Shown: positions 150 through 24,633, numbered from the stretch's first letter. The stretch: 43,764 bases of DNA from an uncultured Eubacteriales bacterium (GCA_903919045.1 CAIXGU010000254.1:1-43764); one strand, 5' to 3'. Notes: generated by a model from the letters alone, not told the origin. Made by a program: numbers and translations.

Positions 150-170
150 ATTCCATCATCCGCATGGAAT
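150..170. promoter_or_regulatory. Inverted repeat ATTCCAT-N7-ATGGAAT, candidate operator in the rbsK/GH18 divergent region
   Basis: Perfect 7-bp arms at 150-156 and 164-170 in the intergenic region 93-271. Confidence 0.4.
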
Positions 171-213
171 TCGCTTCGGTTCGCTTCGATAAGGGCGAAT
201 GGATCGGGGCTTC

Positions 214-222
214 TGCTAGAAT
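214..222 (+). promoter_or_regulatory. Putative extended -10 promoter (TGcTAGAAT) for the GH18 gene
   Basis: TGn-TAGAAT lies 50 bp upstream of the ATG at 272 in otherwise GC-rich DNA. Confidence 0.45.
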
Positions 223-271
223 CGAAGATGCCGGGATTTCACGAAGCTTCCTCTGGAAAGGCGGAGATATC

Positions 272-4464: not shown

Positions 4465-6369
4465 TCAGAACTGACCGACGGTCGCGGTGCGGGTGAAGCT
4501 GTTGTAATGGGGAAGGGCCGCGGGACCCGAGGGGACCGTGCCGTGGCAGGTGAGACGCTCCTCCTCGAGTTCCTCGATGCGGGATGACTCTCCGAGGAGG
4601 TAGGCATCCAGGCGGTGGACCACCGTCTCGGCCCGGGCCCGCAGGAACCCGTACTTGATGTCCTCGACCTCCCAGCCGAACGGCTTGTAGAAGTGCGACC
4701 ACGCGTCGCGATGGGCGTGGTGCAGCGCCGTCACGCGGTCGAGGTACTCCCCGGCGACGAGGTCCCGCAGCCCGGAGAGCGCGGCGCGGTCCCCGGCGTC
4801 GTAGGCGCGCTTCAGCCGGAGCCCCAGGTCGACCTTGACCTCGAGGACGCGGCACAGCTGCAGGCCCAGGCGCAGCCCCCACAGCGCGTCGGGTTCGCAC
4901 CCGCCCGCGTCGGCGAGGGCGGCCAGCGCATCCGCCTTCGCCCGATAGACGGCGGCGAAATCGCCTCGGGAGGCCTCGACGTCGAACTGCCCCAGCAGGA
5001 GGTCCTGCCAGAGGAAGTAGCGCTGCGGATTCGGGGATTCGAGTCCGACCAGGCTCAGGCCGTCCTCGATCTCGTCGATGCTGCCGACGGCCCAGAAGCT
5101 CTCGTAGGGCGCGCCCGTCATCACGCGGGCGTTCCTCCGGCTCTTCGGGGCGCCCGCATCGGCGCCGCCGAAGCAGGTTTCGGCGTAGATCATCATGCCG
5201 AGCAGGTCGGGGCCGGGCGGCGCCTCCCCGCCGTCGTCCTTCCAGACGCAGAGGAACATCTCCTCGAGTCCCCTGTCCCGCGCGGCGGCGACGCTCGCAC
5301 GGGTGGTCGCGGCGGTCCGGACGAGGTTCGGCACCAGTCCGATCCAGCTGCAGACCCCCGCCGCGAACAGCGGGCGGATCCCCTGGCGCAGGTGCTCGTC
5401 GATGTATTTCCGGTAGAAGGCCTCGTCCGTGTGGTAGTAGTCCCAATAGATGACGTCGTAATCCTTCGGGATGATCGCGCCGGTTCCCTCCGGAAGCACG
5501 ACGTCCGGGTCGTAGTATCCCGAATCCCGGATGTTCATGCGGAAGATCATGTCGCCCCACATCATCGGCCGGAGCCCGTGCCTCGTGCAGAGGGCCGCGA
5601 GCGCCTCGAGATGCTCGCGCATGATCTCCTCGGGCTTCGTGTAGCCGTGCTTCGAGAGATAGCGGCCCAGCCCGAGCCCATGCGCTTCGTCGAGGCCGAG
5701 ATGGATCCGGCGGGAGCGCACGCAGCCGCTGACGGAGACGATCATGTCCTCGATCAGGGAGAGGACCGCGGGATCCCCGGCGAGGAGGACGTGGGAGGTG
5801 TCCTGGAGGGGATCGGTCACGTTCCAGCGCAGGAAGCGCTCGAGATGCGCGAGCGCCTGGATGCAGGGGATGAGCTCGATGCCCAGGCCGTGGGCGAAAT
5901 CGTCGATCGCGGTCAGCTCGGCGGCGGTGTACCGGCCGCGGTAGTGCCCGAATTCGGGGTGGCCGGGCAGCGGGTAGGTGTCCTCGGTATAGAGCATCAG
6001 CGTGTCGTAGCCCATGAGGGCCATCTTGACGAGGAGGCCCTGCACGGTCCGGACGGTCGGGACGGAATTCCGGCTGCAGTCGTACATGACGCCCAGCGTC
6101 CGGAAGGGACGGTCCTGCCGGATCGTCTCCGGCGCGCCGCCCGCGAGCAGCGCGGAGGACGCGAGCCCGATGCCGCGGAACATCTCCGCCGGGCGGGAGA
6201 AGAGGACCTCCGCGCCATCGCCCGCCACCGTCACCCGGACGCCGGGCTCGTCCCTGCGCCGGAGGACCAACCGCCCCTCCAGCTCTGCGGGAAGCGCCGC
6301 CCTCACGGCTTCCAGTCCGCTCTCGAGCCCATCCGGCGCAGCCGTTCCATCGAACGCGATCCGCAGCAT
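4465..6369 (-). CDS. GH20 beta-N-acetylhexosaminidase (GcnA-like)
   Basis: Motifs DCSRNS, LYTEDTY, GRYT, ELIPCIQALAH, HLGLDEA (catalytic DE), YWDYY, PFGWEV. SD AGGAGG. Confidence 0.88.
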   Translation of the reverse strand: MLRIAFDGTAAPDGLESGLEAVRAALPAELEGRLVLRRRDEPGVRVTVAGDGAEVLFSRPAEMFRGIGLASSALLAGGAPETIRQDRPFRTLGVMYDCSRNSVPTVRTVQGLLVKMALMGYDTLMLYTEDTYPLPGHPEFGHYRGRYTAAELTAIDDFAHGLGIELIPCIQALAHLERFLRWNVTDPLQDTSHVLLAGDPAVLSLIEDMIVSVSGCVRSRRIHLGLDEAHGLGLGRYLSKHGYTKPEEIMREHLEALAALCTRHGLRPMMWGDMIFRMNIRDSGYYDPDVVLPEGTGAIIPKDYDVIYWDYYHTDEAFYRKYIDEHLRQGIRPLFAAGVCSWIGLVPNLVRTAATTRASVAAARDRGLEEMFLCVWKDDGGEAPPGPDLLGMMIYAETCFGGADAGAPKSRRNARVMTGAPYESFWAVGSIDEIEDGLSLVGLESPNPQRYFLWQDLLLGQFDVEASRGDFAAVYRAKADALAALADAGGCEPDALWGLRLGLQLCRVLEVKVDLGLRLKRAYDAGDRAALSGLRDLVAGEYLDRVTALHHAHRDAWSHFYKPFGWEVEDIKYGFLRARAETVVHRLDAYLLGESSRIEELEEERLTCHGTVPSGPAALPHYNSFTRTATVGQF

Positions 6370-6399: not shown

Positions 6400-7323
6400 T
6401 CAGCCCTTCTTCGACTCCGCCAGCGCGGCATAGTTCGGGTTGTCGTAGGGGAAATCGTCGTCGAGCGGATTCCCGTGCGGCGGCAGGATCGACCACGAAT
6501 TGTAGTGATGGACCGCATACCCGGCCTCCGGGACGCGCCATTCCGTCTCGACGATCCGCCGGAGCGCGTGGAGCTCCTCGCAGAGCCGGACGGTCCCGAT
6601 GTGGTCGAAGGTGATGTTGATCTCCTCGTAGATGCGTCCGGTCTCGAATGCCAGGGAGATCCGCCGGCCCAGGCGCTCCGCGAGCGCGAGCCCCGTCCTC
6701 GCGAATTCGACGGCGCCGCGCGCGGTGTCGCGATAGGACATGAAGAGGGTCGTGTCGGCGTGGCGGATGCAGAACTCCGTCAGGTCCATCGGACGTCCGT
6801 CGGCATCGGCGCACGGGTAGCGATCGAACCAGCAGGGGATGTCGAGCTCGAGCGCCGTCCCGGTGCGGTCGGCGACCTGGCGCGCACGGAGGAGGAACGA
6901 CCGGTACGCCGCGACGACGGTGGCGTTGTCGGTCTCCCACGCGGGGAGCTGATGCGGCTCGATGTCGAGATGCAGGCCGTAGAAGCGTTCCTCGGGGGCG
7001 GAGACGCGCTGGTGGTCCTCATAGAACGCGAAGAACCGCTCTCCCTCCTGCCGGCCCTCCGGCAGCACCCAGCGAGCGTCCGCGCCGATCAGGGCGACCC
7101 GCACGCCGGCCGCGCGGCAGGTCCGGACGAAGGTCCGGTACTCCTCGGCGCTCCTCTTCCCGGGCGCGTAGACCAGGTAGATCTCGTTGACGCCGTTCGG
7201 GACGAGGAAGCGCAGGACCTCTTCGGGCCAGCCGATCTCCTCCGCGCGCCAGACCCAGGTGCCGAAGGGGACTCTTCTTCCGACCCGGTTGAAATCGCAG
7301 GGTTCCGCGTGGTTCGTGGACAT
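6400..7323 (-). CDS. Uncharacterised putative TIM-barrel glycoside hydrolase, cytoplasmic paralog of 12501..13487
   Basis: Motifs GTWVW, NGVNEIYL, RFYGLHLDIEP, MSYRDTA, FETG, AVHHYNSW. No signal peptide. SD GAAGGAG precedes ATG 7323. Confidence 0.7.
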   Translation of the reverse strand: MSTNHAEPCDFNRVGRRVPFGTWVWRAEEIGWPEEVLRFLVPNGVNEIYLVYAPGKRSAEEYRTFVRTCRAAGVRVALIGADARWVLPEGRQEGERFFAFYEDHQRVSAPEERFYGLHLDIEPHQLPAWETDNATVVAAYRSFLLRARQVADRTGTALELDIPCWFDRYPCADADGRPMDLTEFCIRHADTTLFMSYRDTARGAVEFARTGLALAERLGRRISLAFETGRIYEEINITFDHIGTVRLCEELHALRRIVETEWRVPEAGYAVHHYNSWSILPPHGNPLDDDFPYDNPNYAALAESKKG

Positions 7324-7506
7324 GGCGGCCGCTCCTTCCATTCATCGGAGATCGATGGACCCATCATACACGACTCCTTCGGCGGCGGCTGGAATCTGTG
7401 CAGAAAAGCGAAGGGATGGACAGGACCCAATGCGATTTCGGTATTATGCACATATCCGTGCGTCTATACTGGAACGGAAGGACGCAACGGGGGAGGGAAG
7501 GACGCA
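7324..7506. promoter_or_regulatory. Divergent promoter region between the left minus-strand operon and the central operon
   Basis: AT-richer intergenic stretch with TATACT (7465-7470, +), TATGAT (7363-7368, -) and an inverted pair TGTGCA (7398-7403) / TGCACA (7447-7452). Confidence 0.5.
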
Positions 7507-9147
7507 ATGGTCCCGACGAAGTCGATCGCATGGATCCTCGCCGCCAGTCTGGTCCTCGCGCTCGCGGGCTGCGCGGAGTGCGCGCCGAGCGACGCGACGC
7601 CCGAACCCTCCGCGAACGGGAAATACCGCCCCGCGATCGAGCTGACGGTCCCCGGCCGGGTCCTCGTGCGCGACGCGGCAGGCTACGATGATTTCCGCAA
7701 TCCGTGGACCGAGGCCTACGAGGACGAGCTCGGAATCACGCTCGTGCCCAAGTGGACCGCCGCCGCCGCGGAGAACGTGACGCTGAGCGAGCAGCTGGCG
7801 GCGGGCGTCGTCCCGGACCTGATGCCGGGACTGGGCCGCGCCGAATTCGAGCTCGTGGTCCGGCTCGGGCTCGCGGCGGACATGGGGGACCTGGTCGACC
7901 GCTTCGCGAGTCCCCTCACGAAGGAGATCCTCCACAGCGACGGCGGCTATTCGATCCAGAGCTCCACGATCGACGGGAAGCTGTACGCGCTGCCCCACGT
8001 CTATGGGAATACGGACAACATCCCGATGATGTGGATCCGGACGGACTGGCTCCGGGAGCTCGGGCTCGAGGTCCCCAAGACGCAGGACGACCTCGAGGCC
8101 GTCCTCGAGGCCTTCGTGCGCAGGGACCCCGACGGGAACGGCGTCGAGGATACGTTCGGTCTCTGCAGCACCGGCAGCCTGTGGGAATTCGGAGCCGTCT
8201 TCAACATGTTCGGAGCCCAGCCGTTCTGGAGCTGGTACTATGACGGGTACCACCGGCTCCGCTACTCCACCGTCTCGTTCGTCCCCCAGATGAAGGAGGC
8301 GCTCGCCTACCTCCAGCGCCTCTATCGCGCCGGCCTGGTCTACCCCGAATTCGGCGTGCTTCCTGCGGACCGCTACTACCGGACCTTCGCCGATGGCAAG
8401 GCGGGCGTCGCGTTCGAATACAAGTACCTGCCGCTGCACATCCAGGAGGATGCCGCCGGAGGCCGCGTCACGGCCGAATGGAAGGCGTACCCCCTCCCGA
8501 CGGCGCTGCCCGGCGGACAGCCGGCGCGCCCGTTCTCCTACCATGGTCCGGCGGCCTACAATGTCGTCTCCTCGAAATGCAGGTACCCCGAGGCGGCGAT
8601 CCGGATGCTGGACCTGTACACCGAGAAGGTCCATTCGGACCGGAGCGACGACTCCTACGACCGGTTCGTGCAGACCCCCGGCGGCGTCTCCGTGGAGAGA
8701 TACGCCGTGTTCCGGATGTCCGTCGCGAACGACCTCTCCGAATTCGACGACATCGCGGCGGCGGTCGAAGCCGGGGACCCGGCCGGACTCACCCGCAGCG
8801 AAGCCGAGAAGTACCGCCTGTGCATCCAGTACGAGGAGGGCGACCTGACCCGGTGGGCGGATTACCAGTATTATGGTCCGGGAAACGCCACGGTGACGGT
8901 CATCCGCTACTACTCGACCGCGGTGACCCCGTTCTTCTCCGACTACTATGGGCCGGAGCCGCAATCGGCGGGCCTCTATTTCGGCCAGCTCAACAGCCGC
9001 TGGCTGGAGACCTGCACCCGGATCATCATGGGGGACGCGGACGTCGGCATCTACGACGACTTCGTCCGGGCCTTCTATTCGCTCGGCGGCCAGCAGGCCG
9101 AGGACGAGCTGAACGCCATGGTGGCGGCGGCGACGGTGACGCCGTGA
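7507..9147 (+). CDS. Extracellular solute-binding lipoprotein (LplA-like carbohydrate SBP), probably sensor-associated
   Basis: Lipobox LAGC, and motifs DGKLYALP, WIRTDWLRELGLEVPKT, DPDGNG, YPEAAIRMLD. Start ATG 7507 follows GGGAGG. The stop overlaps the kinase start (GTGA). Confidence 0.88.
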   Translation: MVPTKSIAWILAASLVLALAGCAECAPSDATPEPSANGKYRPAIELTVPGRVLVRDAAGYDDFRNPWTEAYEDELGITLVPKWTAAAAENVTLSEQLAAGVVPDLMPGLGRAEFELVVRLGLAADMGDLVDRFASPLTKEILHSDGGYSIQSSTIDGKLYALPHVYGNTDNIPMMWIRTDWLRELGLEVPKTQDDLEAVLEAFVRRDPDGNGVEDTFGLCSTGSLWEFGAVFNMFGAQPFWSWYYDGYHRLRYSTVSFVPQMKEALAYLQRLYRAGLVYPEFGVLPADRYYRTFADGKAGVAFEYKYLPLHIQEDAAGGRVTAEWKAYPLPTALPGGQPARPFSYHGPAAYNVVSSKCRYPEAAIRMLDLYTEKVHSDRSDDSYDRFVQTPGGVSVERYAVFRMSVANDLSEFDDIAAAVEAGDPAGLTRSEAEKYRLCIQYEEGDLTRWADYQYYGPGNATVTVIRYYSTAVTPFFSDYYGPEPQSAGLYFGQLNSRWLETCTRIIMGDADVGIYDDFVRAFYSLGGQQAEDELNAMVAAATVTP

Positions 9148-10889
9148 AGCGCGTCTTCCACCCCTCCTCCCTCTTCATGAAGCTCACGGGCGTCTTCCTC
9201 GCCGTCGTGGCGATCCTGTGCGCCGTCTATCTGTATTCGTACGTCTCGAGCATGAATCTTCTGCAAAGCGAGAAGACGACGTCGCTGGCGAATGCGGGTC
9301 GCAGCCAGGTCCAGACGATCGACTGGCAGATCGCGAACGCGAAGCGCGCGATCTACAACCTCTATTCGCTGCAGGACTGGAATTCGCTCGCAATGGCGCA
9401 CGGCTACGTCCTCGACTACGACGTGCTGCAGCAGGTCAAGGCCGCCGAGGACCGGATCCGGCTGCTCGTCAACGACAGCGAGATCCCGAGCGAGGTCGTC
9501 GTCCATTTCCCTCGGTGGGGACGCAGCATCTCGGCGAACCTCGGGCTGGTCGACTACGACGCGGAGCGGTGGGAAGGCGTCTCCATGCCGCGGAACTCCG
9601 TCGGAGCCCAGATCGTGTACCGCGACGGGTCCGCCTATCTCACCACCCGCTACCAGACGGCCGGCCCGGCCCTGTACGGCGTCGACGCGGTGCTGTCCTT
9701 CGAGCGGAGCTACCAGGCGTTCGGGGATTACGCGATGATGGGGGTGCCGCTGAACAACTATCTGTACGACACGGCGAGCGGGAACCTCCTGTACCGGCAC
9801 GAGGAGTTCGGGGGCGAGGCCGATGCGTTCCTCGCGGACCGCCTGGAGGGACTGGACCTCGCGAGCGGGAACCCGGCGACGCTGCGCTTCGGCGGCGATC
9901 GCTACCTGGTGCTGTCGGCCTCCTCCTCCTACAGCCGGCTGCGGGTCGTGAACATCGTCCGCCCGTCCGACCTCATCGAGCCGTTCGCGCGGCAGACCCG
10001 GCTCGTCATCCTCTTCACCGCCCTCATGTCCCTCTCGCTCGTCCTGACCCTGGCGTACCTGAGGCACAGCATCGTCCGCCCGGTCGAACGGATGGTCCAG
10101 GCGTTCAAGCCGGTCGAGCAGGGGGACTTCTCGGTGAGCCTCGCCCCGACGTCGAACGACGAGTTCGCGACGCTGTACCGGTCCTTCAACCACATGGTGG
10201 AGAACCTGCATGTGCTGGTCAACGAGGTGTACCAGAAGGAGCTGCTGGTCCAGCGCGCTTCCCTGAAGCAGCTGCAGAGCCAGATCAGCCCGCATTTCCT
10301 GTACAACAGCCTCTATGCGCTCTCGGCCATGATCAAGATCGGGGACAACGAGAACGCCGAGCGCTTCTGCATGTACCTCTCGAACTATTTCCGGTACATC
10401 ACCCGGAGCGACGCGGACCTCGTGCCGCTGGCCGACGAATGGCGGCATGCCGAGAACTACCTGAACATCATGGCCATGCGCAGCGGCACGGTGCGGGTCG
10501 AATTCCAGGAGGAACTCCCTGCCGGCGTGCGAGACCTCCAGGTCCCGCGCCTGATCGTGCAGCCCATCGTCGAGAACGCCTTCGTCCATGGCGGCAAGAG
10601 CGTGAAGACGTTCCATCTGCGCGTCACCGCGGCCGCCGACGCCGACCGGGTCCTGATCCGCGTGGAGGACAACGGCACGGGCACGGACGACCGGCTCATC
10701 GAGGCGATGAACGACCGCCTGCAGGACCTTCTCGCGCACGAGGAGGTCACCGGCCTCATGAACATCCACCGCCGCCTCCGGATCGTGTTCGGCCCGGAGG
10801 CCGGTCTCTCCGCCAGCCGGAGCGAGCTCGGCGGCGTCTGCGTGACGGAGACGCTGGTCCGGAAGGGAGGCGACGAGGATGACCTATAG
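9144..10889 (+). CDS. YesM/LytS-type sensor histidine kinase (2 TM, HAMP, His_kinase, HATPase)
   Basis: Two hydrophobic segments, HAMP (NDEFATLYRSFNHM), H-box QSQISPHFLYNSL, QPIVENAFVHG, VEDNGTG, GLMNIHRRL. GTG start at 9144. Confidence 0.92.
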   Translation: MKRVFHPSSLFMKLTGVFLAVVAILCAVYLYSYVSSMNLLQSEKTTSLANAGRSQVQTIDWQIANAKRAIYNLYSLQDWNSLAMAHGYVLDYDVLQQVKAAEDRIRLLVNDSEIPSEVVVHFPRWGRSISANLGLVDYDAERWEGVSMPRNSVGAQIVYRDGSAYLTTRYQTAGPALYGVDAVLSFERSYQAFGDYAMMGVPLNNYLYDTASGNLLYRHEEFGGEADAFLADRLEGLDLASGNPATLRFGGDRYLVLSASSSYSRLRVVNIVRPSDLIEPFARQTRLVILFTALMSLSLVLTLAYLRHSIVRPVERMVQAFKPVEQGDFSVSLAPTSNDEFATLYRSFNHMVENLHVLVNEVYQKELLVQRASLKQLQSQISPHFLYNSLYALSAMIKIGDNENAERFCMYLSNYFRYITRSDADLVPLADEWRHAENYLNIMAMRSGTVRVEFQEELPAGVRDLQVPRLIVQPIVENAFVHGGKSVKTFHLRVTAAADADRVLIRVEDNGTGTDDRLIEAMNDRLQDLLAHEEVTGLMNIHRRLRIVFGPEAGLSASRSELGGVCVTETLVRKGGDEDDL

Positions 10890-12504
10890 GATCATGGTCG
10901 TGGACGACGAGACCGTCATCACCGACTGGGTCGCCCATCTCCTCGCGACGCGCTTCGGACCTGCGGTCGAGGTCTATCGCCACAACGACGCGTCGGCCGC
11001 CCTCCGGCAGCTCCTGACGGGCCTCTTCGACATCGCGGTCCTCGATATCAGCATGCCGGGCATCTCCGGCATCGACATCCTCCAGGAACTCGAGGCCAAG
11101 CGGATCGGCACGCGGATCATCTTCCTCACGGCGTACGGGGAATTCGAATACGCGAAGCGGGCCATCACGCCGCAGGTCGCGGCCTACATCCTCAAGGGCG
11201 AGCCGGACGAGATGCTGGAGCAGGCGGTCCGCGACGCCATGAAGCGGATCGAGGAACAGGTCGAGACCGAGAATCTCGTCCGCATCGCGCGCCGGCGGAT
11301 CGAGGCGGCGCCGACCGGGATCCGCCGCGAATACCTGGTCCGGCTCCTCCAGGGGCAGGGCGCGCCGGGTCCGGACGGGCCGCAGGTCCCGATGCTGCTG
11401 TCGCCGGAGAAGGGGACGCGGATGCTGATCTGCGCCCTGAACGGACGGGACGAGGAACCGCCGGTCCCGGGGCTCCTCCTGGAGATGGGCGCGCACATCG
11501 AGGAGGCGCTGGGACGCTCCTACGTCTTCGAGGGCGTCATGATGCAGAACGACAGCCTCGTGTGGCTGCTGCAGCCCCGCAGGGAGGAGGACGCCGGACC
11601 GGAGCCCCTCCTGGCGGTGATCGAGGGAGCGCAGACGCTCTACAGCCGGCATACAGGACACGACCTGCTGTTCGTCCATTCGAGCGCGCCGTTCCCGTTC
11701 GCCGAGACGGGACGGGTCTACCAGCAGCTGCTGCCGCTGCTCGCGTTCGGCTACGGCAAGGGACACATCGTGCTGGCCGAGGAGGACCTCCCGGAAGCGG
11801 GAGCGGCGGCGACGCCCGGGGAGGAGCGTTCCGCACCGCCGCTGCGTCGCGCGCCCATGCTGCTTTCGCTGCTCGAGCGCGGCGAACGCAAGGAGAGCCT
11901 CGAGCTGCTGGACGAGATGCTGGCGCCGTTCGGGAAGCTCCGACCCGACGGCGACCCGGCGCTCCTCGAGACCTACAGCATCGTGAGCGGCGTCCTGCTG
12001 GCCGCCCTGAACCGGACGGGCGCCTACGCCGACATCAGCCGCAGGCATCCGCTCGTCTGGCTGGGAGACCCCCATGCGTTCTCTTCGGGAGAGAAGGCCG
12101 CGGAGGCGTTCCGACGACTGGCGGGGATGCTGCTCCTGCGGACCGAGCGGAAGAAGGACGGCCGTTCCCAGGCCTGCGTCGAGAAGGCGAAGGAATACAT
12201 CGCGGCGCATCTGGACCAGGACCTGTCCCTCATCCTCCTCGCCGAGCAGGTGTTCCTCAACCCGTCGTACCTCTCCATCCTCTTCAAGAACAAGGCCGGA
12301 TGCACCGTCTCCGACTACATCAAAGGGGAGCGGCTGAAGAAGGCGGAGCAGCTCCTCGCGGAGACGAGGATCAAGATCAACGAGATCGCGCGGAGCGTCG
12401 GCTACCCGAACGCGACGTACTTCGGACGCTTCTTCAAGCAGGAGACGGGGCTCACGCCGCTCGAGTACCGCGACCGGCATGCGGTCCGGGAGGACCGGGC
12501 ATGA
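10879..12504 (+). CDS. YesN-type response regulator (REC + AraC HTH)
   Basis: VVDDE, LDISMPGISG, FLTAY. C-terminal LNPSYLSILFK...VGYPNATYFGRFFKQETGLTPLEYR. Confidence 0.93.
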   Translation: MTYRIMVVDDETVITDWVAHLLATRFGPAVEVYRHNDASAALRQLLTGLFDIAVLDISMPGISGIDILQELEAKRIGTRIIFLTAYGEFEYAKRAITPQVAAYILKGEPDEMLEQAVRDAMKRIEEQVETENLVRIARRRIEAAPTGIRREYLVRLLQGQGAPGPDGPQVPMLLSPEKGTRMLICALNGRDEEPPVPGLLLEMGAHIEEALGRSYVFEGVMMQNDSLVWLLQPRREEDAGPEPLLAVIEGAQTLYSRHTGHDLLFVHSSAPFPFAETGRVYQQLLPLLAFGYGKGHIVLAEEDLPEAGAAATPGEERSAPPLRRAPMLLSLLERGERKESLELLDEMLAPFGKLRPDGDPALLETYSIVSGVLLAALNRTGAYADISRRHPLVWLGDPHAFSSGEKAAEAFRRLAGMLLLRTERKKDGRSQACVEKAKEYIAAHLDQDLSLILLAEQVFLNPSYLSILFKNKAGCTVSDYIKGERLKKAEQLLAETRIKINEIARSVGYPNATYFGRFFKQETGLTPLEYRDRHAVREDRA

Positions 12505-13487
12505 AGCGCGTGCCGGCCGTTCTCGCCGGGATCCTGCTGATCGCCGCGCTGGCCTCCTGCGCCGCCCCGTCCGCCGCGGCGCCGACGCCCACCCCGCCGG
12601 AAGCGACGCCGACCGCCGGAACCGCCGCGCCGACCGCCCCCGGATCCCCGACCTCCCTGGCGTCGATCTACGCTGGAAGGGAGAGCCACGTCCTCGGCAC
12701 CTGGTGGTGGAACGCGGACCTGATCCGCAAGGCGGCCGACCGGAAGATCCGGCTCGATTTCCTTCAGGCGAACGGCGTGACGGAGATCTACCTCTCCTTC
12801 GGCGGCGTCGTCTGGGATTCGCAGTACCGGGACTTCATCGCCGACTGCACCGCGCGGGGCATCCGGGTCTCCGCCCTGGACGGAGACGCAGCCTGGCTGA
12901 ACGCCGAAGGGTACGCGGCCTACGAGCGCTGGCTGGCGCATGTCGCGGCATACCAGGAAGCGGCGGTCGAAGGGGAGCGATTCTACGGCATCCACCTGGA
13001 CCTCGAGCCCCTGCAGAACGCGGAATACGCCGCCGATCCGGCATCGATGGCGACCGATGTCGCCCGCATCTACGACCGGGCGCGGGCCTTCTGCGACGCG
13101 CAGGATCTCGAGTTCGCCGCCGACGTGAGCCTGTGGCTCGACGACCCCGCGCTGGGGACGCCGGATCCGCAGGACCCGGTGACCCTCGGGGAATACATCG
13201 CCCGCCGCGTGGACACGCTGGCGCTCATGGCCTACCGGGACACCGCGGCCCGTCAGTTCGCGGATGCGCAGCCGATGCTCCGGATCGCGCAGCGGACGGG
13301 CAAGGCGGTCGTCGTCGGCAGCGAGACCGGGAAGGTCGACGAGCCGGAATTCGTCACGTACTACGAGGAAGGCAAGGCCGCCCTCGTGGACCAGATGGGG
13401 AAGCTCCAGATCCTGATGGACGGAACGGGACTGCGCTATGGACTGGCCATCCATTACGTCGAGTCCTGGTTCGACCTGAAGGACTGA
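12501..13487 (+). CDS. Lipoprotein, uncharacterised putative glycoside hydrolase (paralog of 6400..7323)
   Basis: ATGA overlap with the regulator. Lipobox LASC, Pro/Thr/Ala linker, and motifs GTWWW, NGVTEIYL, RFYGIHLDLEP, MAYRDTA, SETG, AIHYVESW. Confidence 0.75.
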   Translation: MKRVPAVLAGILLIAALASCAAPSAAAPTPTPPEATPTAGTAAPTAPGSPTSLASIYAGRESHVLGTWWWNADLIRKAADRKIRLDFLQANGVTEIYLSFGGVVWDSQYRDFIADCTARGIRVSALDGDAAWLNAEGYAAYERWLAHVAAYQEAAVEGERFYGIHLDLEPLQNAEYAADPASMATDVARIYDRARAFCDAQDLEFAADVSLWLDDPALGTPDPQDPVTLGEYIARRVDTLALMAYRDTAARQFADAQPMLRIAQRTGKAVVVGSETGKVDEPEFVTYYEEGKAALVDQMGKLQILMDGTGLRYGLAIHYVESWFDLKD

Positions 13488-13549: not shown

Positions 13550-14905
13550 ATGAAACGTCTGACTGGTCTCGTCCTCATCCTCGTCCTCGTCTTCGCAGTG
13601 GCCGCCTGCGCCCCTGCGCCGACGCCGACATCCACGCCCGTGCCCACGGCGACGCTCACGCCCGAGCCGACCTATGATTACGGCGGCCTTACGGTCCGCC
13701 TGGCCTGGGGCTGGGGTCCGCGCTTCACGGAACCGGGCGAGGACAAGGACCGCTTCGATGCCCGCGTCAAGGAAGTCGAGGAGAAGCTCAACATCAAGTT
13801 CGAGTGGAAGCAGATCGACGCCGGCGAGTTCTGGGACAACATGGTCACGAACACCCTGGCCAACAAGAGCCCCGGAACCGTCAACTTCACCTTCCCGTGG
13901 GTCTTCCCCGACTGGATCAAGGCGGGTCTGCCCGCCGACGTCAAGACCATCGCTTCGCGCGTCGGGATCGACATGGGCTCGACGGCCTGGGATCCGCTGG
14001 CCCGCGTGGCGGGAACGTACGGCGACAAGCTGTACTGCTTCGACAAGTTCCCGCTCGAGGTCAACGGCGGCTTCATCTTCAACAAGCGCCTGCTGCAGGA
14101 AGCCGGACTCAAGAGCCCGTATGACCACGTCAAGGACGGCACCTGGAACTGGGATACCCTTCGCGCCTATTCGAAGCTGCTGACCAAGGTCGACGCGGAC
14201 GGCAAGACCACGCAGTACGGCCTCTCGTCGATGTATCCCCAGTCCCTCGCCGACCTGCTGGTCCTCAGCAACGGCGGCGACCTCGTCGACAGCTCGGGCG
14301 CCACGCCGGTCGTGACCGCCGATTCCGAGCCGGTCCTCGAGGCCCTCAGCATGTACCAGCAGCTGGTCGCGGTCGACAAGAGCGTCCGCATCGGCGACCC
14401 GAACGACTGGGAGAGCAACATCAAGGCCTTCGCCAGCGGCGAGGTGGCCATGATGCTGGCCGAGCAGTGGGTCGTCGACTACATCAACACCATGAAGCCG
14501 GAGGAGTTCGGCTTCGTGTACTTCCCCAAGGGGCCGAAGGGCACCGACTATGTCTCGACGGCCGGCTACTTCATGTTCTGGATTCCCGCGAATCTCGACG
14601 AGAAGACGCAGGACGCCACGCTGCTGGCCTACAGCATGATCTTCGACAACCTCTATCCCGAGATGACCCTGACGGACTACTACAAGCAGATGGCGGAGAA
14701 GTACGTCCACGATGAGGACGGCGCCGCGATCTACGCGGACATCCAGGCCAACCAGCGCTTCAAGATGATGGCGGGCGACCGCTACGGCGTCGACAGCTGG
14801 GCGCTGTACAACCTGCTCGCCACCCTGGACAACACCCCGCAGTCCGCCGTGGCCGCGCAGAAGCCGGTCATGGAGGCCAAGATCGCCGACTTCCTCGCGA
14901 AGTAG
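13550..14905 (+). CDS. Carbohydrate ABC transporter solute-binding lipoprotein
   Basis: Lipobox VAAC, Pro/Thr linker, YDYGG, FNKRLLQEAG, GTWNWD, FGFVYFPKGP. Strong SD AAGGAGG. Confidence 0.9.
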   Translation: MKRLTGLVLILVLVFAVAACAPAPTPTSTPVPTATLTPEPTYDYGGLTVRLAWGWGPRFTEPGEDKDRFDARVKEVEEKLNIKFEWKQIDAGEFWDNMVTNTLANKSPGTVNFTFPWVFPDWIKAGLPADVKTIASRVGIDMGSTAWDPLARVAGTYGDKLYCFDKFPLEVNGGFIFNKRLLQEAGLKSPYDHVKDGTWNWDTLRAYSKLLTKVDADGKTTQYGLSSMYPQSLADLLVLSNGGDLVDSSGATPVVTADSEPVLEALSMYQQLVAVDKSVRIGDPNDWESNIKAFASGEVAMMLAEQWVVDYINTMKPEEFGFVYFPKGPKGTDYVSTAGYFMFWIPANLDEKTQDATLLAYSMIFDNLYPEMTLTDYYKQMAEKYVHDEDGAAIYADIQANQRFKMMAGDRYGVDSWALYNLLATLDNTPQSAVAAQKPVMEAKIADFLAK

Positions 14906-14927
14906 GCGGAGCAACGAATCGCCCGAA

Positions 14928-14953
14928 CCCGGCGGAGGGAGACCTCCGCCGGG
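14928..14953 (+). other. Strong intergenic stem-loop after the SBP gene (mRNA stabiliser or leaky terminator)
   Basis: CCCGGCGGAGG-GAGA-CCTCCGCCGGG: perfect 11-bp stem, GNRA loop, no poly-U tail. Confidence 0.65.
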
Positions 14954-14970
14954 GGAGGCCCGGGGGAGAG

Positions 14971-17859
14971 ATGGCAAGACGTCGTTCCGCAGCGCTGATC
15001 CTGGCCCTACTGGTCGCTTCGCTGCCGGTCCTCGCGGTCGGCGCGGATGCGGGGTACGTTCCCGGCACCGGCTCGTCCGATCCGGGCGGCGGCCTCCTCC
15101 TCTCGGCAGGAAGCGCGGACTCCCTCGTTTCCTATCGGGACTACCTCGATTTCCTCGCGGAGAACACGGCGATCCCTCCGGCCGAAGCCGACCTCCCGAT
15201 CCCGTTCGACCGGCTGGAGCAGGGCGGAGGCGTCTTCGAGACGCTTCCGGACGCCGTCCACATCGACGAGGACGGCTCGCTGACCGTCGAGGTGACCGCC
15301 CCGCGGACCGCCCTCTACGAGCTCCGGTTGACGTACATGCCCGAGCCCGGCCGGTCCGCGGCCTGCGAGCTGTCCGTCCTGGTCGGCGACGCCGTGCCCT
15401 ACCGCCAGGCGGCGACGATCCTCGCGGACCGCATCTGGAAGCCTCGGTCCGGCACGATCGAACAGGACAGCAACGGGAACGACATCCGGCCGACGGAGGT
15501 CGAGGACGCCCGCTACAGCACCCTCCGCGCCATGGACAGCACCGGCTACACGACCACGCCGCTGCTTTTCCGTCTCGAGGGAGGCGTGAACCGGATCACG
15601 ATCCACGACAACCGGGAGAGCATCCGGATCCGGGAGATCGCGCTCTGCGCCCCCGAGGCCCTCCCTTCCTACGAAGAATACATCGCGGAGCATGCGGACG
15701 CCTCCATGGCGTCCGAGAGCTGCGCTCGCATCCAGGCGGAGCATCCCGCCTGGACGAACGATCCGGTCCTCGTTCCGACCTCGGACCGGACCTCTCCTCT
15801 GACCGAGCCGTACAAGGGCTCGAAGATCAGCCTCAACACCATCGGCCAGGACGGGTGGAGCCTGACCGGGCAGACCATCGCCTGGAGCTTCGACGCCCCG
15901 CAGGACGGGCTGTACGAGATCCGCTTCAAGGCCAAGCAGAACTACACGAGGGGCACCTATTCCAGCCGCACCCTGCTGGTCGACGGCCGGATCCCCTTCG
16001 CGGAGGCCCAGTCCGTCCGGTTCACGTACAGCAGCCGCTGGCAGCGGGTCACGCTCGGGGACGGAACGGATCCGTACTTCGTCTACCTCGGCGCCGGCCG
16101 GCACGAGCTGGCCCTTCGGGTGACGCTGGGCGACCTGGGCGACGTGCTCGGCCGGGTCGATGCGTGCGCCGCGGAAGTCGGCTCGATCTACCGCAAGTTC
16201 CTGATGATCATGGGCGCGAATCCGGACACGATGCGCGACTACAAGCTCGACCGGCAGCTGCCGGACGTCTTCGTCGAGATGGCGGACCTCGCGGACCGCC
16301 TGGACGCGGTCGCCGCCGACATGGGCGCGATCACGGGCACACGGGGGACGGAGCTGCTCAGCCTCACGCGCATGGCGATGACCCTCCGCGACTTCGTGGA
16401 GAAGCCGTACGAGATCCCCGCGAAATTCGCGATCTTCACCGGCGACATGTCGTCCCTGAACGCCTGGAAGAACGACGCCGCCTATCGTCCGCTCGAGCTG
16501 GACTCCATCGACGTCGCGGCGCCGGACGCCCCGGAGGAGCGGGTGCGGCCGAGCATCTGGGAGACGATCGCCCATGGCGCGACGCTGTTCTTCTCTTCCT
16601 TCTTCGAGAACTACGACGACCTCGGCCGCACGTCGGACACCGCGAAGACGCTGACGGTCTGGTCGACGACCGGGCGGGACCAGGCGCAGGTGCTGAACCA
16701 GCTGGTCAAATCGGGCTTCCGTCCGGACCGCGACGTCAACGTGCAGATCCAGCTCGTGCGGATCGATGCGATCCTCCCGTCCACCGTCGCCGGCAACGGC
16801 CCGGATGTCATCCTGTACGCTCCCCAGCAGATGCCGGTCAATTTCGCCATCCGCGGAGCCGCCCTCGACCTGAGCCGCTTCCCCGGATTCGACGACGTCG
16901 CGGCCCAGTTCCGCGAGAGCGCCCTGACGCCGGCCCGGTTCAACGGAGGCGTCTACGGCCTTCCGGAGACCGAGACGTTCCCCATGCTCTTCTACCGCGC
17001 GGACATCCTCCGGGAGATCGGCGTCTCGGTCCCGCGGACCTGGCCGGAGGTGCTGCAGGCCATCCCCGACCTCCAGAAGAGCAACATGAGCCTGCTCCTC
17101 GAGACGGGCATCTCGAACACCGTCGACAACACCCTGGGGCTTTCCGCCTACGCGATGCTGCTCTACCAGAACGGCGGCCGGTTCTACGAAGGGGACGGGA
17201 TCCGGACGCTGCTCGACCAGGAGACCGCGATCGAGACCTTCCGGACCTGGTGCCGCCTGTACACGAACTACGGCCTGCCGACGACCTTCAATGCGGCCTA
17301 CCGGTTCCGGACGGGCGAGAGTCCTCTCGTCATCTCCGACATGAGCCTCTACAACACCCTGATGATCTCCGCTCCGGAGATCAAGGGCCTGTGGGGCATG
17401 ACCACCGTGCCCGGCACGCCGCGGAACGGGACCGTGGACCGGTCCGTCAAGACCGCGACCACCTACACGATGGCCACGAGGACCTGCGACGATCCGGACG
17501 ACGCCTGGACCTTCATCCGGTGGTGGCTGGGCGAGGACACCCAGCTCGCCTACGCCCGCGACCTGGAGAGCCTCATGGGGACGGCCGCCCGCTACATGAC
17601 CGCCAATGTCGATGCGTTCTCCCGCCTGCCCTGGGCGACGAAGGACCTCGACTCCATCCTGGAGCAGAGCCGCTGGACCGTCGGCGTCCCGGAGGTCGCG
17701 GGCGGGTACTTCCTGCCGCGCCACATCAACAACGCCTTCCGCAGCGTCGTGATCGACAAGGCCGACCCCCGGGAGGCCCTGATCTCGTATGCCAAGGTGA
17801 TCGACGAGGAGCTCCGCGAGAAGCGCCTCGAGTTCGGGCTGCCGGTCGACGGCGGCTGA
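14971..17859 (+). CDS. Large (962 aa) extracellular protein: two CBM6/35-like beta-sandwich modules, helical linker, C-terminal sugar SBP domain
   Basis: Signal peptide. Duplicated motifs VEVTAPRTALYEL...FRLEGGVNRITI and WSFDAPQDGLYEI...VYLGAGRHELAL. C-terminal SBP motifs GRDQAQ, GVYGLPET, FYRADIL, VPRTW, WGMTTVPG. Confidence 0.82.
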   Translation: MARRRSAALILALLVASLPVLAVGADAGYVPGTGSSDPGGGLLLSAGSADSLVSYRDYLDFLAENTAIPPAEADLPIPFDRLEQGGGVFETLPDAVHIDEDGSLTVEVTAPRTALYELRLTYMPEPGRSAACELSVLVGDAVPYRQAATILADRIWKPRSGTIEQDSNGNDIRPTEVEDARYSTLRAMDSTGYTTTPLLFRLEGGVNRITIHDNRESIRIREIALCAPEALPSYEEYIAEHADASMASESCARIQAEHPAWTNDPVLVPTSDRTSPLTEPYKGSKISLNTIGQDGWSLTGQTIAWSFDAPQDGLYEIRFKAKQNYTRGTYSSRTLLVDGRIPFAEAQSVRFTYSSRWQRVTLGDGTDPYFVYLGAGRHELALRVTLGDLGDVLGRVDACAAEVGSIYRKFLMIMGANPDTMRDYKLDRQLPDVFVEMADLADRLDAVAADMGAITGTRGTELLSLTRMAMTLRDFVEKPYEIPAKFAIFTGDMSSLNAWKNDAAYRPLELDSIDVAAPDAPEERVRPSIWETIAHGATLFFSSFFENYDDLGRTSDTAKTLTVWSTTGRDQAQVLNQLVKSGFRPDRDVNVQIQLVRIDAILPSTVAGNGPDVILYAPQQMPVNFAIRGAALDLSRFPGFDDVAAQFRESALTPARFNGGVYGLPETETFPMLFYRADILREIGVSVPRTWPEVLQAIPDLQKSNMSLLLETGISNTVDNTLGLSAYAMLLYQNGGRFYEGDGIRTLLDQETAIETFRTWCRLYTNYGLPTTFNAAYRFRTGESPLVISDMSLYNTLMISAPEIKGLWGMTTVPGTPRNGTVDRSVKTATTYTMATRTCDDPDDAWTFIRWWLGEDTQLAYARDLESLMGTAARYMTANVDAFSRLPWATKDLDSILEQSRWTVGVPEVAGGYFLPRHINNAFRSVVIDKADPREALISYAKVIDEELREKRLEFGLPVDGG

Positions 17860-17877
17860 CGTCCGGGAGGAGCGCGC

Positions 17878-18834
17878 ATGGAATCGAGATCCCAGAGAAG
17901 CGCCCGGCGCCTGCTGGACTGGTCCCGGTCCCGGGACCCCTGGCTGCGCCTGCTGGCCCGGGTCTGGCGGTACCGGACGGCCTATCTCTTCCTCCTGCCG
18001 TTCGCCGTCGTCTTCCTCGTCTTCACGGTGGCGCCCGTCGTCATCTCCATGCTCTACGGCTTCACGTACAACAACCTCCTCGAGCCGGCCCGCTTCATCG
18101 GATTCGCGAACTACATCAAGCTCGCCACCCACGACGACGTCTTCCTCATCGCCCTGAAGAACACCATCGTCTTCGCCGTGCTCACGGGGCCCCTCGGCTA
18201 CGTCCTCAGCTTCATGGTCGCCTGGTTCATCAACGAGCTGCCGAAGCGCATCCGGCCGCTGTTCGTCCTGATCTTCTATTCGCCGTCGATCGCCGGATCG
18301 ATCTACATCATCTTCGGGATCCTCTTCAGCGGCGATTTCTACGGGTACGTGAACGCCACCCTGATGAACTGGGGATTCATCGATCAGCCGATCAACTGGC
18401 TCGCGGACCCGAAGTACATGGCCTTCGTCGTGGTCATCTGCGTGCTGTGGACGAGCATGGGCGCCGGGTTCCTGTCCTTCGTCGCCGGCCTGCGCAGCAT
18501 GGACAGGCAGTATTTCGAGGCCAGCGCCATCGACGGCGTCCGCAACCGCTGGCAGGAGCTCTGGTACGTCACGCTCCCCCTCATGAAGCCCCAGCTGATG
18601 TTCGGGGCCATCCTGAGCATCACGGCCGCCTTCTCCATCCACGAGGTCACGATCGCGCTCATGGGATTCCCCAGCACCGAATACGCGGCGCACACCGTCG
18701 TGAACCACCTATGGGACTACGGATACCTCCGCTTCGACATGGGCTACGCGTCGGCGATCGCCACGGTGCTGTTCCTGGTCATGATCGGGTGCAACAAGGC
18801 GATCAACGCCATGCTTCGAAAGGTGGGGAAGTAG
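17878..18834 (+). CDS. Carbohydrate ABC permease (MalF/UgpA-like)
   Basis: Multiple TM segments, FIGFANY, EAA loop YFEASAIDG, MGYASAIA. Confidence 0.93.
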   Translation: MESRSQRSARRLLDWSRSRDPWLRLLARVWRYRTAYLFLLPFAVVFLVFTVAPVVISMLYGFTYNNLLEPARFIGFANYIKLATHDDVFLIALKNTIVFAVLTGPLGYVLSFMVAWFINELPKRIRPLFVLIFYSPSIAGSIYIIFGILFSGDFYGYVNATLMNWGFIDQPINWLADPKYMAFVVVICVLWTSMGAGFLSFVAGLRSMDRQYFEASAIDGVRNRWQELWYVTLPLMKPQLMFGAILSITAAFSIHEVTIALMGFPSTEYAAHTVVNHLWDYGYLRFDMGYASAIATVLFLVMIGCNKAINAMLRKVGK

Positions 18835-19788
18835 ATGGCCGCACGCAGGGCGAACGGCGGGGACCTGCTCCGCCTGGCCGGCCGGAGCGTCCGGACGCTC
18901 GGGGAAGGCTATGTCCGCACCCGGTCCGGAATCCGCCGCACGTTCCACGTCCGGGCGACGCGCAGCGCGAGCGGCAACCTCGCCAATCTCCTGATGCTCG
19001 CGATCTTCTCCGTCCTGATGCTCGTGCCCATGCTGTACGTCGTCAACAACGCCTTCAAGCCGGTGGACGAGCTGTTCATCTTCCCGCCGCGGATCTTCGT
19101 GCAGAACCCGACGCTCGACAATCTCCGCGACCTCGCCTCGATCCTGGGCAACTCCTGGGTGCCGGTGACCCGCTACCTCTTCAACACGGTGCTGATCACC
19201 TCGGCGGGAACCGCCCTGCACGTCCTCTTCGCGAGCATGGCGGCCTATGTCCTCGAGAAATATCCCTTCCCGGGATCGAAGGCGTTCTTCGCGCTCGTGA
19301 TCACGACCCTGATGTTCTCCGCGACCATCACCAGCATCCCCAATTTCATCATCCTGTCCCGCCTCGGGATGGTCAACACGCTCTGGTCGATCATCGTCCC
19401 CGCCATCGGCGCGCCGCTCGGCCTGTTCCTGATGAAGCAGTTCATGTCGACGGTGCCCGACAGCGTCATCGAGGCCGCGAAGATCGACGGCACGAGCGAG
19501 ATGCGCCTCTTCTTCCGCATCGTCATGCCCATGGTGAAGCCGGCCTGGCTCGCCCTGATCATCTTCTCGGCGCAGAACCTGTGGAACACGACCGGCGACA
19601 TCTACATCCGCAGCGAGTCGCTCAAGCCCCTTCCGTACGCCATGCAGCAGATCATGTCCGCGGGCGTGGCGCGCGCCGGGGCGGGCTCCGCCGTGGGGCT
19701 CCTCCTGATGGTCGTGCCGATCGCGGTCTTCATCGCCAGCCAGAGCAGCATCGTCGACACCATGGCGACCTCGGGGATCAAGGAATGA
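18835..19788 (+). CDS. Carbohydrate ABC permease (MalG/UgpE-like)
   Basis: NPTLDN, LFLMKQF, EAA loop VIEAAKIDG. Starts immediately after the previous stop. Confidence 0.93.
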   Translation: MAARRANGGDLLRLAGRSVRTLGEGYVRTRSGIRRTFHVRATRSASGNLANLLMLAIFSVLMLVPMLYVVNNAFKPVDELFIFPPRIFVQNPTLDNLRDLASILGNSWVPVTRYLFNTVLITSAGTALHVLFASMAAYVLEKYPFPGSKAFFALVITTLMFSATITSIPNFIILSRLGMVNTLWSIIVPAIGAPLGLFLMKQFMSTVPDSVIEAAKIDGTSEMRLFFRIVMPMVKPAWLALIIFSAQNLWNTTGDIYIRSESLKPLPYAMQQIMSAGVARAGAGSAVGLLLMVVPIAVFIASQSSIVDTMATSGIKE

Positions 19789-21368: not shown

Positions 21369-21997
21369 AGCCGGCCACGTTCGGAAGCGGGCTGCGGTAC
21401 GCCCTCCACATCGTCGCGCATCCCTTCGACGGCTTCTATGACATGCGCCACGAGAAGCGGGGGAACCTGGGAGCGGTCCTGCTCCTCTACGCCCTCTTCG
21501 TGGAATCCGTGCTGGCGATGCAGCAGTACGGCGGGTTCCTGATGTTCGATTTCGACCCCCGCTCCTACAATGTCCTCCGGAGCCTGCTGACCATCGTCCT
21601 GCCGATCGTCCTCTTCTGCGTCGCCAACTGGTCCTTCACGGCCCTGACCGACGGCGAGGGCCGCTTCGTCGACATCGTGATGGCGCTCGGCTACGCGCTG
21701 GTGCCGGCGATGGCCGCGAACTTCCTCGGGACGCTCCTGTCCAACGTCGTGGTCGAGAATGAAACGGACTTCGTGGGCATGCTCATCGGTCTGGGCGTGG
21801 TCTGGAGCGGATTCCTGGTCTTCGCCGGAATCCTGACGATCCACCGCTTCACGGTCCGCAAGACCCTCTTCACGCTGGTCATCACGGTCGCCGGGATGGT
21901 CTTCATCGTCTTCCTGGCCCTGCTGTTCGGCAGCGTCATCGACAAGCTGATCGGCTTCGTCACGGGCCTGATCACCGAAATCCGGCTGAGGAGCTGA
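21365..21997 (+). CDS. Yip1-family integral membrane protein
   Basis: ATGA-coupled, 210 aa, about 5 TM helices. HPFDGFYDMRHEKRG and NWSFTALTDGEGRF are typical of the bacterial Yip1 proteins found in these clusters. Confidence 0.78.
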   Translation: MKPATFGSGLRYALHIVAHPFDGFYDMRHEKRGNLGAVLLLYALFVESVLAMQQYGGFLMFDFDPRSYNVLRSLLTIVLPIVLFCVANWSFTALTDGEGRFVDIVMALGYALVPAMAANFLGTLLSNVVVENETDFVGMLIGLGVVWSGFLVFAGILTIHRFTVRKTLFTLVITVAGMVFIVFLALLFGSVIDKLIGFVTGLITEIRLRS

Positions 21998-22001
21998 AGC
22001 G

Positions 22002-24617: not shown

Positions 24618-24633
24618 GGCGAAGGGGGACGGC

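Follow-up and report, generated by a model that had tools for sequence, protein, structure and literature searches.

A surface and cytoplasm pair of putative N-acetylhexosamine-glycan hydrolases from an unnamed GH18/GHL10-related family flanks a sensor module in a Eubacteriales sugar-uptake locus

The window analysed here is a whole contig of 43,764 nucleotides (43.8 kb; CAIXGU010000254.1:1-43764) from the 2.64-Mb, 67%-GC metagenome bin of an uncultured Eubacteriales bacterium (GCA_903919045.1). Two of its genes, encoding the related proteins P0001 (6400..7341, minus strand) and P0002 (12501..13487, plus strand), are our subject. We propose that both products are probably hydrolases of N-acetylhexosamine (HexNAc)-containing glycans from an unnamed family related to the glycoside hydrolase (GH) families GH18 and GHL10, and that they work as a pair, P0002 at the cell surface and P0001 in the cytoplasm. 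Homology, fold, conservation, localization signals and gene order of the pair are established by the comparisons below, and it is from these that we infer catalysis, the class of substrate and the division of labour.

Both genes are real open reading frames, with a GC content at third codon positions of ~0.9, as is usual for genes in the window. P0001 has 313 amino acids when read from the ATG at 7341 and 307 when read from the ATG at 7323, the shorter form being database entry P0003, and its N-terminus is not hydrophobic and carries no signal peptide. P0002 (328 amino acids) begins with MKRVPAVLAGILLIAALASC, where direct reading of the sequence assigns a signal peptide and the lipobox L-A-S-C to residues 1-20 (MKRVPAVLAGILLIAALAS-C meets the pattern [LVI][ASTVI][GAS]C); a Pro/Thr/Ala linker of ~35 residues (~21-55) then leads to a barrel at residues ~64-328. 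BLASTP aligns the two proteins over almost the entire catalytic domain (87/263 identical, 33%; E 1e-40), and the alignment contains the motifs GTWxW, FLxxNGVxEIYL, ERFYGxHLDxEP, MxYRDTA, ETG and GxAxHxxxSW. The start codon of P0002 (12501-12503) overlaps the TGA stop of a response-regulator gene (12502-12504) as ATGA, and a GGGAGGA lies 5-12 nt upstream of it. The initial annotation of this DNA had described an end-to-end paralog pair sharing these six motifs, one member cytoplasmic and the other a lipoprotein on a Pro/Thr stalk that is translationally coupled to the response regulator, the two genes flanking a sensor module, and in all of these respects it is borne out.

P0001 and P0002 are the sole members of their family in the 2.64-Mb assembly, where a profile of 43 members finds them at E 3.5e-97 and 3.0e-81 respectively. 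A quick maximum-likelihood tree puts them in two separate clades, one of 11/11 rows (Shimodaira-Hasegawa-like approximate likelihood ratio test, SH-aLRT, 99) and one of 8/8 rows (SH-aLRT 100); the two clades and 29 further members of the family meet in a three-way fork that the tree does not resolve. Because each falls in its own well-supported clade, the two proteins appear from the tree to be distant relatives rather than recent duplicates.

The family to which they belong is unnamed but large. As the initial annotation had held, it is unassigned: neither protein has a meaningful match to Pfam or NCBIfam at E<=10, and at the same threshold no Pfam family is common to more than three of the 43 members of our alignment A1, in which weak single matches to GH18 (E 0.071, 1/43) and GH97 (E 0.083, 1/43) occur. 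The names 'DUF4434' and 'Amidase' that some members bear in their source databases were rejected, as no Pfam match stands behind either among these 43. When 1.84 billion representatives of 50%-identity clusters were searched by profile, 5287 clusters scored at E<=1e-3, 3941 at E<=1e-10 and 1525 at E<=1e-30; proteins with two family domains in tandem and multidomain proteins are among them. The members come from Firmicutes of gut, rumen and soil, and also from Actinomycetota, Bacteroidota and Proteobacteria. Pfam domains in the 23 longest relatives comprised dockerin (6), CBM4_9 (1), SLH with RCC1 and DUF4832/DUF4874 (1), Cu_amine_oxidN1 (1), PD40 (1) and Laminin_G_3 (1), the other 12 having no further Pfam domain; related clusters in the ESM Atlas, again without a common Pfam family, are fused to CBM30, CBM96 and Big_7. 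A crude rule of N-terminal hydrophobicity marks ~200 of 264 members as exported, 42 of these with a lipobox, and much of the non-exported remainder is the cytoplasmic P0001 clade. Literature on Cwp19/GHL10/DigH, GH18 TIM barrels, the Cellulomonas fimi GH97 and new GH families yielded no description of the family. On these sequence comparisons, which covered Pfam and NCBIfam and did not extend to CAZy, it is most likely a candidate new GH family without a model in either database.

The AlphaFold2 (AF2) model of P0001, computed from alignment A1, is a (beta/alpha)8 barrel of eight strands and eight helices (predicted local distance difference test, pLDDT, 93.9; predicted template modelling score 0.91). 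Conserved residues sit at the C-terminal ends of its strands: W29 and W31 on beta1, D126-x-E128-P129 just after beta4, W171 after beta5, M201-x-Y203-R204 at the end of beta6, E233 at the end of beta7 and H278 at the end of beta8. The proposed catalytic D-x-E lies in the segment H124-L-D126-I-E128-P129, directly after beta4 (codons 6955..6972, minus strand), and its counterpart in P0002, numbered from the BLASTP alignment, is H165-L-D167-L-E169-P170 (12993..13010, plus strand). Counted over 271 domains from 264 proteins, in P0001 numbering, the two acids that the initial annotation had singled out in HLDxE are kept in 268 (D126) and 269 (E128) domains, with P129 in 265, W171 in 269, W31 in 264, H278 in 267, M201 in 266, Y203 in 264 and R204 in 267; the residue before E128 is Ile or Val in 261. 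H124 is not invariant (235/271, with Gln in 22 and Asn in 9). The family signature can thus be written W-x-W (beta1), [HQN]-L-D-[IV]-E-P (beta4), W (beta5), M-x-Y-R-[DN] (beta6), E-T (beta7) and H (beta8), and both P0001 and P0002 carry all of its elements.

The column of E233 deserves separate treatment. Glu is kept there in 245 of the 271 domains and is replaced in the other 26 by Asn (9), Asp (8), Gln (4) or five others, in a beta7 region that is aligned unambiguously. Since 23 of these 26 domains retain both D126 and E128, Glu233 seems dispensable as a nucleophile, and the pattern of conservation fits better with an important but replaceable pocket residue in a site centred on D-x-E than with an obligatory nucleophile; in the majority of members it may still act as one. 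In two tandem members (P0123 and P0124) the first domain has Asn at this position and the second has Glu, which suggests that the domains of these proteins are sub-functionalized or partly degenerate.

Profile-profile comparison places the family beside GH18 and GHL10. Run with the 271-domain alignment, hhalign matches it to GHL10 at 97.1% (E 5.1e-11, 238 columns, beta1 to beta7) and to GH18 at 95.2% (E 2.9e-8, 133 columns, beta3-beta6), E-values that refer to single comparisons against profiles made from genome matches to the Pfam families (30 sequences for GH18, 29 for GHL10, 12 for GH5 and 9 for GH42). The 43-row alignment A1 gives 96.4% with GHL10 and 91.1% with GH18, and the reversed family profile 0.1% with either. 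Control comparisons between other families scored 99.2% (GHL10-DUF4015), 97.1% (GH18-GHL10), 95.8% (GH5-GH42), 95.6% (GHL10-GH42), 1.9% (GH18-GH5) and 0.7% (GH18-GH42). The family itself shows no relation to DUF4015 (4.7%) or GH20C (4.3%). Because GH18 and GHL10 match each other about as strongly as the family matches either of them, we regard it, on profile evidence, as a third branch of a GH18/GHL10 superfamily, slightly nearer to GHL10 (the Cwp19/DigH type) than to GH18. GHL10 links both to GH18 and to the clan GH-A family GH42, which do not link to one another, and in these profiles it behaves as a bridge between the two groups of barrels.

In the GH18 alignment, Y121, H124, D126 and E128 fall on the D, D, D and E of DxxDxDxE, and M201, Y203 and R204 on the M, Y and D of MxYD. 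The initial annotation had read GxHLDxEP and MxY as occupying the DxDxE and MxYD positions of GH18-like barrels with His in place of an Asp, and the alignment agrees, with H124 on that Asp. The likeness to GH18 that it drew from this stands in the profile match and has to be qualified in two respects, the variability of H124 and the slightly closer kinship with GHL10. In the GHL10 alignment H124-L-D126 falls on the H-L-D of 'GvHLDDY' and E128 on the Tyr. The Cwp19 structure paper singles out the Asp of HLDDY, at beta4, as the key residue and also points to a beta6 Tyr; in our alignment these two positions coincide with the HLD and the Y203 of the family.

An exhaustive structure comparison found only glycosidases among the nearest neighbours of the model, in keeping with the predicted TIM-barrel fold and GH kinship; no non-GH fold emerged. 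The top match is Cwp19 of C. difficile (Z 18.4-18.6, root-mean-square deviation 3.7 A, 242-243 residues aligned), followed by the putative chitinase domain 4wiw (Z 17.7) and by a plateau at Z 15.5-16.6 made up of GH164, GH1, GH5, GH42, GH18 and PgaB. Foldseek against the PDB gave generic TIM barrels at template modelling scores of ~0.5 (tagatose epimerases, GH53, GH20C, GH18), which do not discriminate. The modelled fold is therefore a glycosidase-type barrel among whose clans structure does not choose.

We hypothesize that both proteins are single-domain (beta/alpha)8 enzymes of ~270 residues whose active site would lie at the C-terminal face of the barrel. In the Asp126-x-Glu128-Pro segment after beta4, Glu128 would serve as general acid with the help of Asp126; Tyr203-Arg204, after beta6, would contribute to the proposed active site, and Trp171 (beta5), Glu233 (beta7) and His278 (beta8) would line the pocket. 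Such a site would most probably cleave beta-linked N-acetylhexosamine-containing glycans with retention of configuration. A HexNAc substrate and substrate-assisted retention seem to us the most likely combination because GH18 and GHL10 act on polymers of N-acetylglucosamine and N-acetylmuramic acid, because the family agrees with GH18 in its D-x-E and M-x-Y columns, and because the partner encoded next to P0001 is of beta-hexosaminidase type. Substrate assistance as such, which rests on the analogy with GH18, has in our estimate a nearly even chance of being correct, and retention through Glu233 as the nucleophile is a good deal less probable. Of the substrate-assisted mechanism suggested by the initial annotation, then, the correspondence of D-x-E and M-x-Y with GH18 holds up, and the near-conservation of E233 leaves room for a two-carboxylate mechanism.

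Several observations weigh against this proposal. Our literature search found no biochemical data for any family member. At the end of beta7, E233 occupies the place of a catalytic Glu in clan GH-A and in PgaB, and because it is so widely kept, a classical Koshland mechanism on non-acetylated sugars is conceivable. Both GH18 motifs are altered: Tyr/Phe and His take the place of the first two of the four acids in DxxDxDxE, and at beta6 the Tyr is followed by Arg204 instead of Asp, and then by Asp or Asn. The structure scores are equal for GH18-like and clan GH-A-like barrels, and the modest numbers of sequences behind the comparison profiles and the single-comparison E-values limit the weight of the hhalign results. 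Fusions to CBM4_9, CBM30 and dockerin are more usual in enzymes that act on plant beta-glucan or xylan than in those that act on HexNAc. Paenibacillus, Bacillaceae, Brevibacillus and Clostridia have distant members whose genes lie in unrelated contexts, after a UDP-glucose dehydrogenase gene, after a gene for a glycosyltransferase of family GT4, beside ftsZ/spoIIGA, or alone, and substrates probably differ across the family. Finally, no close homolog of P0001 or P0002 was found in 40 other sampled genomes of the same order (0/40; threshold for P0002 E<=1e-25), so that the locus is accessory and the evidence that the pair is conserved comes from a handful of metagenome bins.

The strongest of the alternatives is that P0001 and P0002 are two-carboxylate retaining glycosidases like those of clan GH-A, with Glu128 as acid/base and Glu233 as nucleophile, acting on a non-acetylated beta-glycan such as mannan, galactan or glucan, their GH18-like motifs reflecting shared barrel ancestry only. 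The Glu-Pro after beta4, the Tyr after beta6 and the Glu ending beta7 do occupy clan GH-A positions, the last in 245/271 domains; the GH164, GH1, GH5 and GH42 structures, at Z 15.8-16.6, equal those of GH18; GHL10, the nearest profile, itself links to GH42 at 95.6%; and the dockerin, CBM4_9 and CBM30 fusions would suit such enzymes. We nevertheless consider this unlikely. The family shows no profile similarity to clan GH-A (8.5% with GH5 and 0.4% with GH42, against 95.8% between GH5 and GH42 in the control), the residue before Glu128 is Ile or Val in 261/271 domains and not the Asn of N-E-P, E233 is replaced, mostly by Asn, Asp or Gln, in 23 domains in which D126 and E128 are intact, and the conserved partner gene encodes a beta-hexosaminidase-type protein.

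A role in the cell wall is less probable again. Here the two proteins would resemble Cwp19 and DigH, as hydrolases or lytic transglycosylases of peptidoglycan or a secondary wall glycan, P0002 serving as a surface autolysin or remodelling enzyme and P0001 in muropeptide recycling together with hexosaminidases. Cwp19 and GHL10 are the top structure (Z 18.4-18.6) and the top profile (97.1%), and Cwp19 is reported to lyse cell walls and is called a lytic transglycosylase in a paper title. Most members of the family are secreted singletons of spore-forming Firmicutes, some are encoded beside ftsZ/spoIIGA/sigE or fused to SLH or Cu_amine_oxidN1, some bear the source name 'Amidase', and the GH3 and GH20-type enzymes adjoining P0001 would suit muropeptide recycling. 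However, both genes lie, here and in their closest relatives, inside a nutrient-uptake locus with ATP-binding cassette (ABC) importers, a GH38 mannosidase, a fucose isomerase and a two-component sensor; Tyr in GHL10 and Gly in Cwp19 stand in the places of the family's Glu128 and Glu233, respectively; and the genes are accessory (0/40 genomes of the order), unlike those of housekeeping wall enzymes. That the barrels are non-catalytic sugar-binding or scaffold proteins with a retained chitinase-like pocket is very improbable: chitinase-like lectins (concanavalin B, imaginal disc growth factor) are among the structural matches and the family lacks two of the four acids in the GH18 signature, but GH18-derived lectins typically lose the catalytic Glu, whereas E128 and D126 are kept here in 269/271 and 268/271 domains, and dockerin and CBM fusions are typical of enzymes.

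The HexNAc-glycan reading is also framed by the locus, whose genes were assigned by Pfam. At its edge lie the genes of a GH18 (164-1288, plus strand), a GH3 (1294-3387, minus strand) and a Gfo/Idh/MocA oxidoreductase (3398-4432, minus strand), all of them proteins without signal peptides and assigned to the cytoplasm. Directly downstream of P0001 on the same strand lies the gene of its partner (4465..6369, minus strand), a GH20C-type beta-hexosaminidase-like protein of 634 amino acids without a signal peptide (Glyco_H_20C_C, E 8.5e-45, and a weak Glyco_hydro_20 match). The sensor module between P0001 and P0002 (7507-12504) consists of the lipoprotein SBP1, a solute-binding protein (SBP) (7507-9147), a His_kinase/HAMP sensor kinase (9144-10889) and a response regulator with a receiver and an AraC-type helix-turn-helix domain (10879-12504), all on the plus strand. 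A divergent intergenic region of ~165-185 bp (window 7342-7506) separates P0001 from the SBP1-kinase-regulator operon and is a likely site of operators for the AraC-type regulator.

Downstream of P0002 follow uptake genes (13550..26494, plus strand; assigned by Pfam and by their N-termini), SBP2 first and then a block (14971-26494) encoding, in order, a 962-amino-acid SBP-containing protein, two permeases, an NHL/TPR protein, a Yip1 protein, a DUF5696 lipoprotein and two further permeases. The DUF5696 protein (871 amino acids, 22002-24617) also has a lipobox, so that P0002 is not, as the initial annotation had it, the only clearly exported hydrolase candidate of the locus. Our search found no literature on DUF5696, and its AF2 model, from a nine-sequence alignment, was too poor for use in a structure search (pLDDT 56.8). 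The locus further encodes an ADP-ribosylglycohydrolase-family protein (26513-27889, Pfam E 5.4e-50), orthologs of which also occur in two related loci (L005 and L007); a 1031-amino-acid cytoplasmic, GH38-like protein without a Pfam match (27900-30995), whose N-terminal 'HLVQASHHDLGYT' resembles the metal-binding start of GH38 mannosidases; just downstream of it, a bona fide GH38 (32926-35547); and a DUF2961 protein, an L-fucose isomerase, a SASA esterase and several ABC importers.

Much of this arrangement recurs elsewhere. Among 12 loci with a P0001 ortholog (41-64% identity), the GH20C-type gene, assigned there too by Pfam, lies directly downstream of it in 10, L012 being too short and L014 lacking the gene; two permeases precede the ortholog-GH20C pair in nine loci, as do DUF5696, Yip1 and NHL genes in eight to nine. 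The order of the uptake block is likewise the same in eight to nine related loci, where it runs directly into the P0001 ortholog and GH20C. GH20C and GH31 also come directly after a member only 32% identical (L019, from a Ruminococcaceae bin). For P0002 the clade is small, with seven orthologs at 52-68% identity. In one locus (L004) both clades stand together in the layout SBP2-P0002-response regulator-histidine kinase-SBP1 / P0001-GH20C, the P0002 ortholog being 58% identical, and both co-occur in two further bins, judged from source names. In another locus the GH20C gene is followed by a third member of the family (L009:10769-11659; 35% identity to P0002), so that some genomes hold extra family copies in the same operon.

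Taken with the gene order, the HexNAc-glycan reading suggests a plausible division of labour. P0002, tethered to the surface by its lipid anchor and flexible stalk, would break a polymer or glycoconjugate down to oligosaccharides; the neighbouring ABC systems would import these, and SBP1, with the kinase and the AraC-type regulator, would sense them; and P0001 would act on the imports in the cytoplasm, with the neighbouring GH20C-type hexosaminidase and the cytoplasmic GH18, GH3 and GH38. The idea of the initial annotation that the surface copy releases the inducer and the cytoplasmic copy trims oligomers is plausible in this light. The scheme in full detail, with substrate-assisted HexNAc cleavage at H-x-D-x-E-P / M-x-Y-R, an endo-acting P0002 that feeds the double ABC cassette and generates the SBP1/kinase/AraC signal, and P0001 and GH20C finishing the products, is offered tentatively, as less likely than not to hold. 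P0001 and GH20C look like substrate-specific cargo enzymes on a generic importer, and if the scheme is true, it is a single unnamed family that determines which substrate an otherwise generic uptake machinery handles. In this locus the pair offers a good handle on the cargo that the conserved SBP/NHL/Yip1/DUF5696 double-importer cassette takes up in cases other than xylan or beta-glucan.

Compared with known systems, a chitinase-like TIM-barrel glycosidase in a glycan-utilization locus is familiar as a kind; it is the family itself that appears uncharacterized. With GH18 (PF00704, clan GH-K; structures at Z 15-16) it shares the D-x-E and M-x-Y columns, yet PF00704 matches neither P0001 nor P0002 at E<=10, the profile alignment stops short of beta1-2 and beta7-8, and the family has a smaller barrel without the alpha+beta insertion and an additional conserved beta7 Glu and beta8 His. 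The clan GH-A families GH5, GH42, GH1 and GH164 have the same fold, with Glu after beta4, Tyr at beta6 and Glu at beta7 in like positions, and differ in the Asn that precedes their beta4 Glu. GH97 enzymes have a three-domain architecture of ~650-750 amino acids with Ca-binding glutamates; P0001 and P0002, at 313 and 328 amino acids, are single barrels without a match to PF10566 (Glyco_hydro_97) at E<=10. The family's only solved relative, PDB 10yv, is nonetheless entitled 'Putative GH97 from Cellulomonas fimi' (275 amino acids). The profile of 43 members finds it over its full length at E 5.5e-25, and single family sequences at E ~2e-7. It keeps D126, E128, P129, E233 and H278 and represents a divergent branch, with Gln for His124 and Val/Phe/Ile at M201/Y203/R204. 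Its GH97 title is not supported by our profile tests, in which the family scored 0.6% against one GH97 catalytic domain, a single-sequence target of low power (the sole GH97 in 151 genomes). Our literature search found no paper describing 10yv, and because this unpublished structure exists, priority over the family may already lie elsewhere. GH185/DUF4838 (Sp_0475, PMC10570127), considered for its HexNAc context, was rejected, as it is a different Pfam domain and does not match P0001 or P0002.

The closest comparison is with GHL10, represented by Cwp19 of C. difficile (PDB 5oq2/5oq3) and DigH of E. coli. Its Pfam model (PF02638) matches neither P0001, P0002 nor any of the 43 members, nor anything in their own genome at E<=1e-20. 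Cwp19 and DigH are both extracytoplasmic enzymes. GHL10 and our family share G-x-H-L-D after beta4 and the M/Y after beta6, but GHL10 has Asp-Tyr where the family has Ile/Val-Glu128, its domains are ~60-80 residues longer, and Cwp19, according to its structure paper, has Gly328 at the beta7 position of Glu233. A large family with dockerin and CBM fusions, for which neither Pfam nor NCBIfam has a model and we could find no published activity, thus takes its place beside GH18 and GHL10. This placement, together with the candidate D-x-E, gives a basis for planning mutational and substrate-screening work, and it suggests a route to annotating thousands of 'hypothetical proteins', some of them misnamed 'amidase', 'DUF4434' or 'GH97'.

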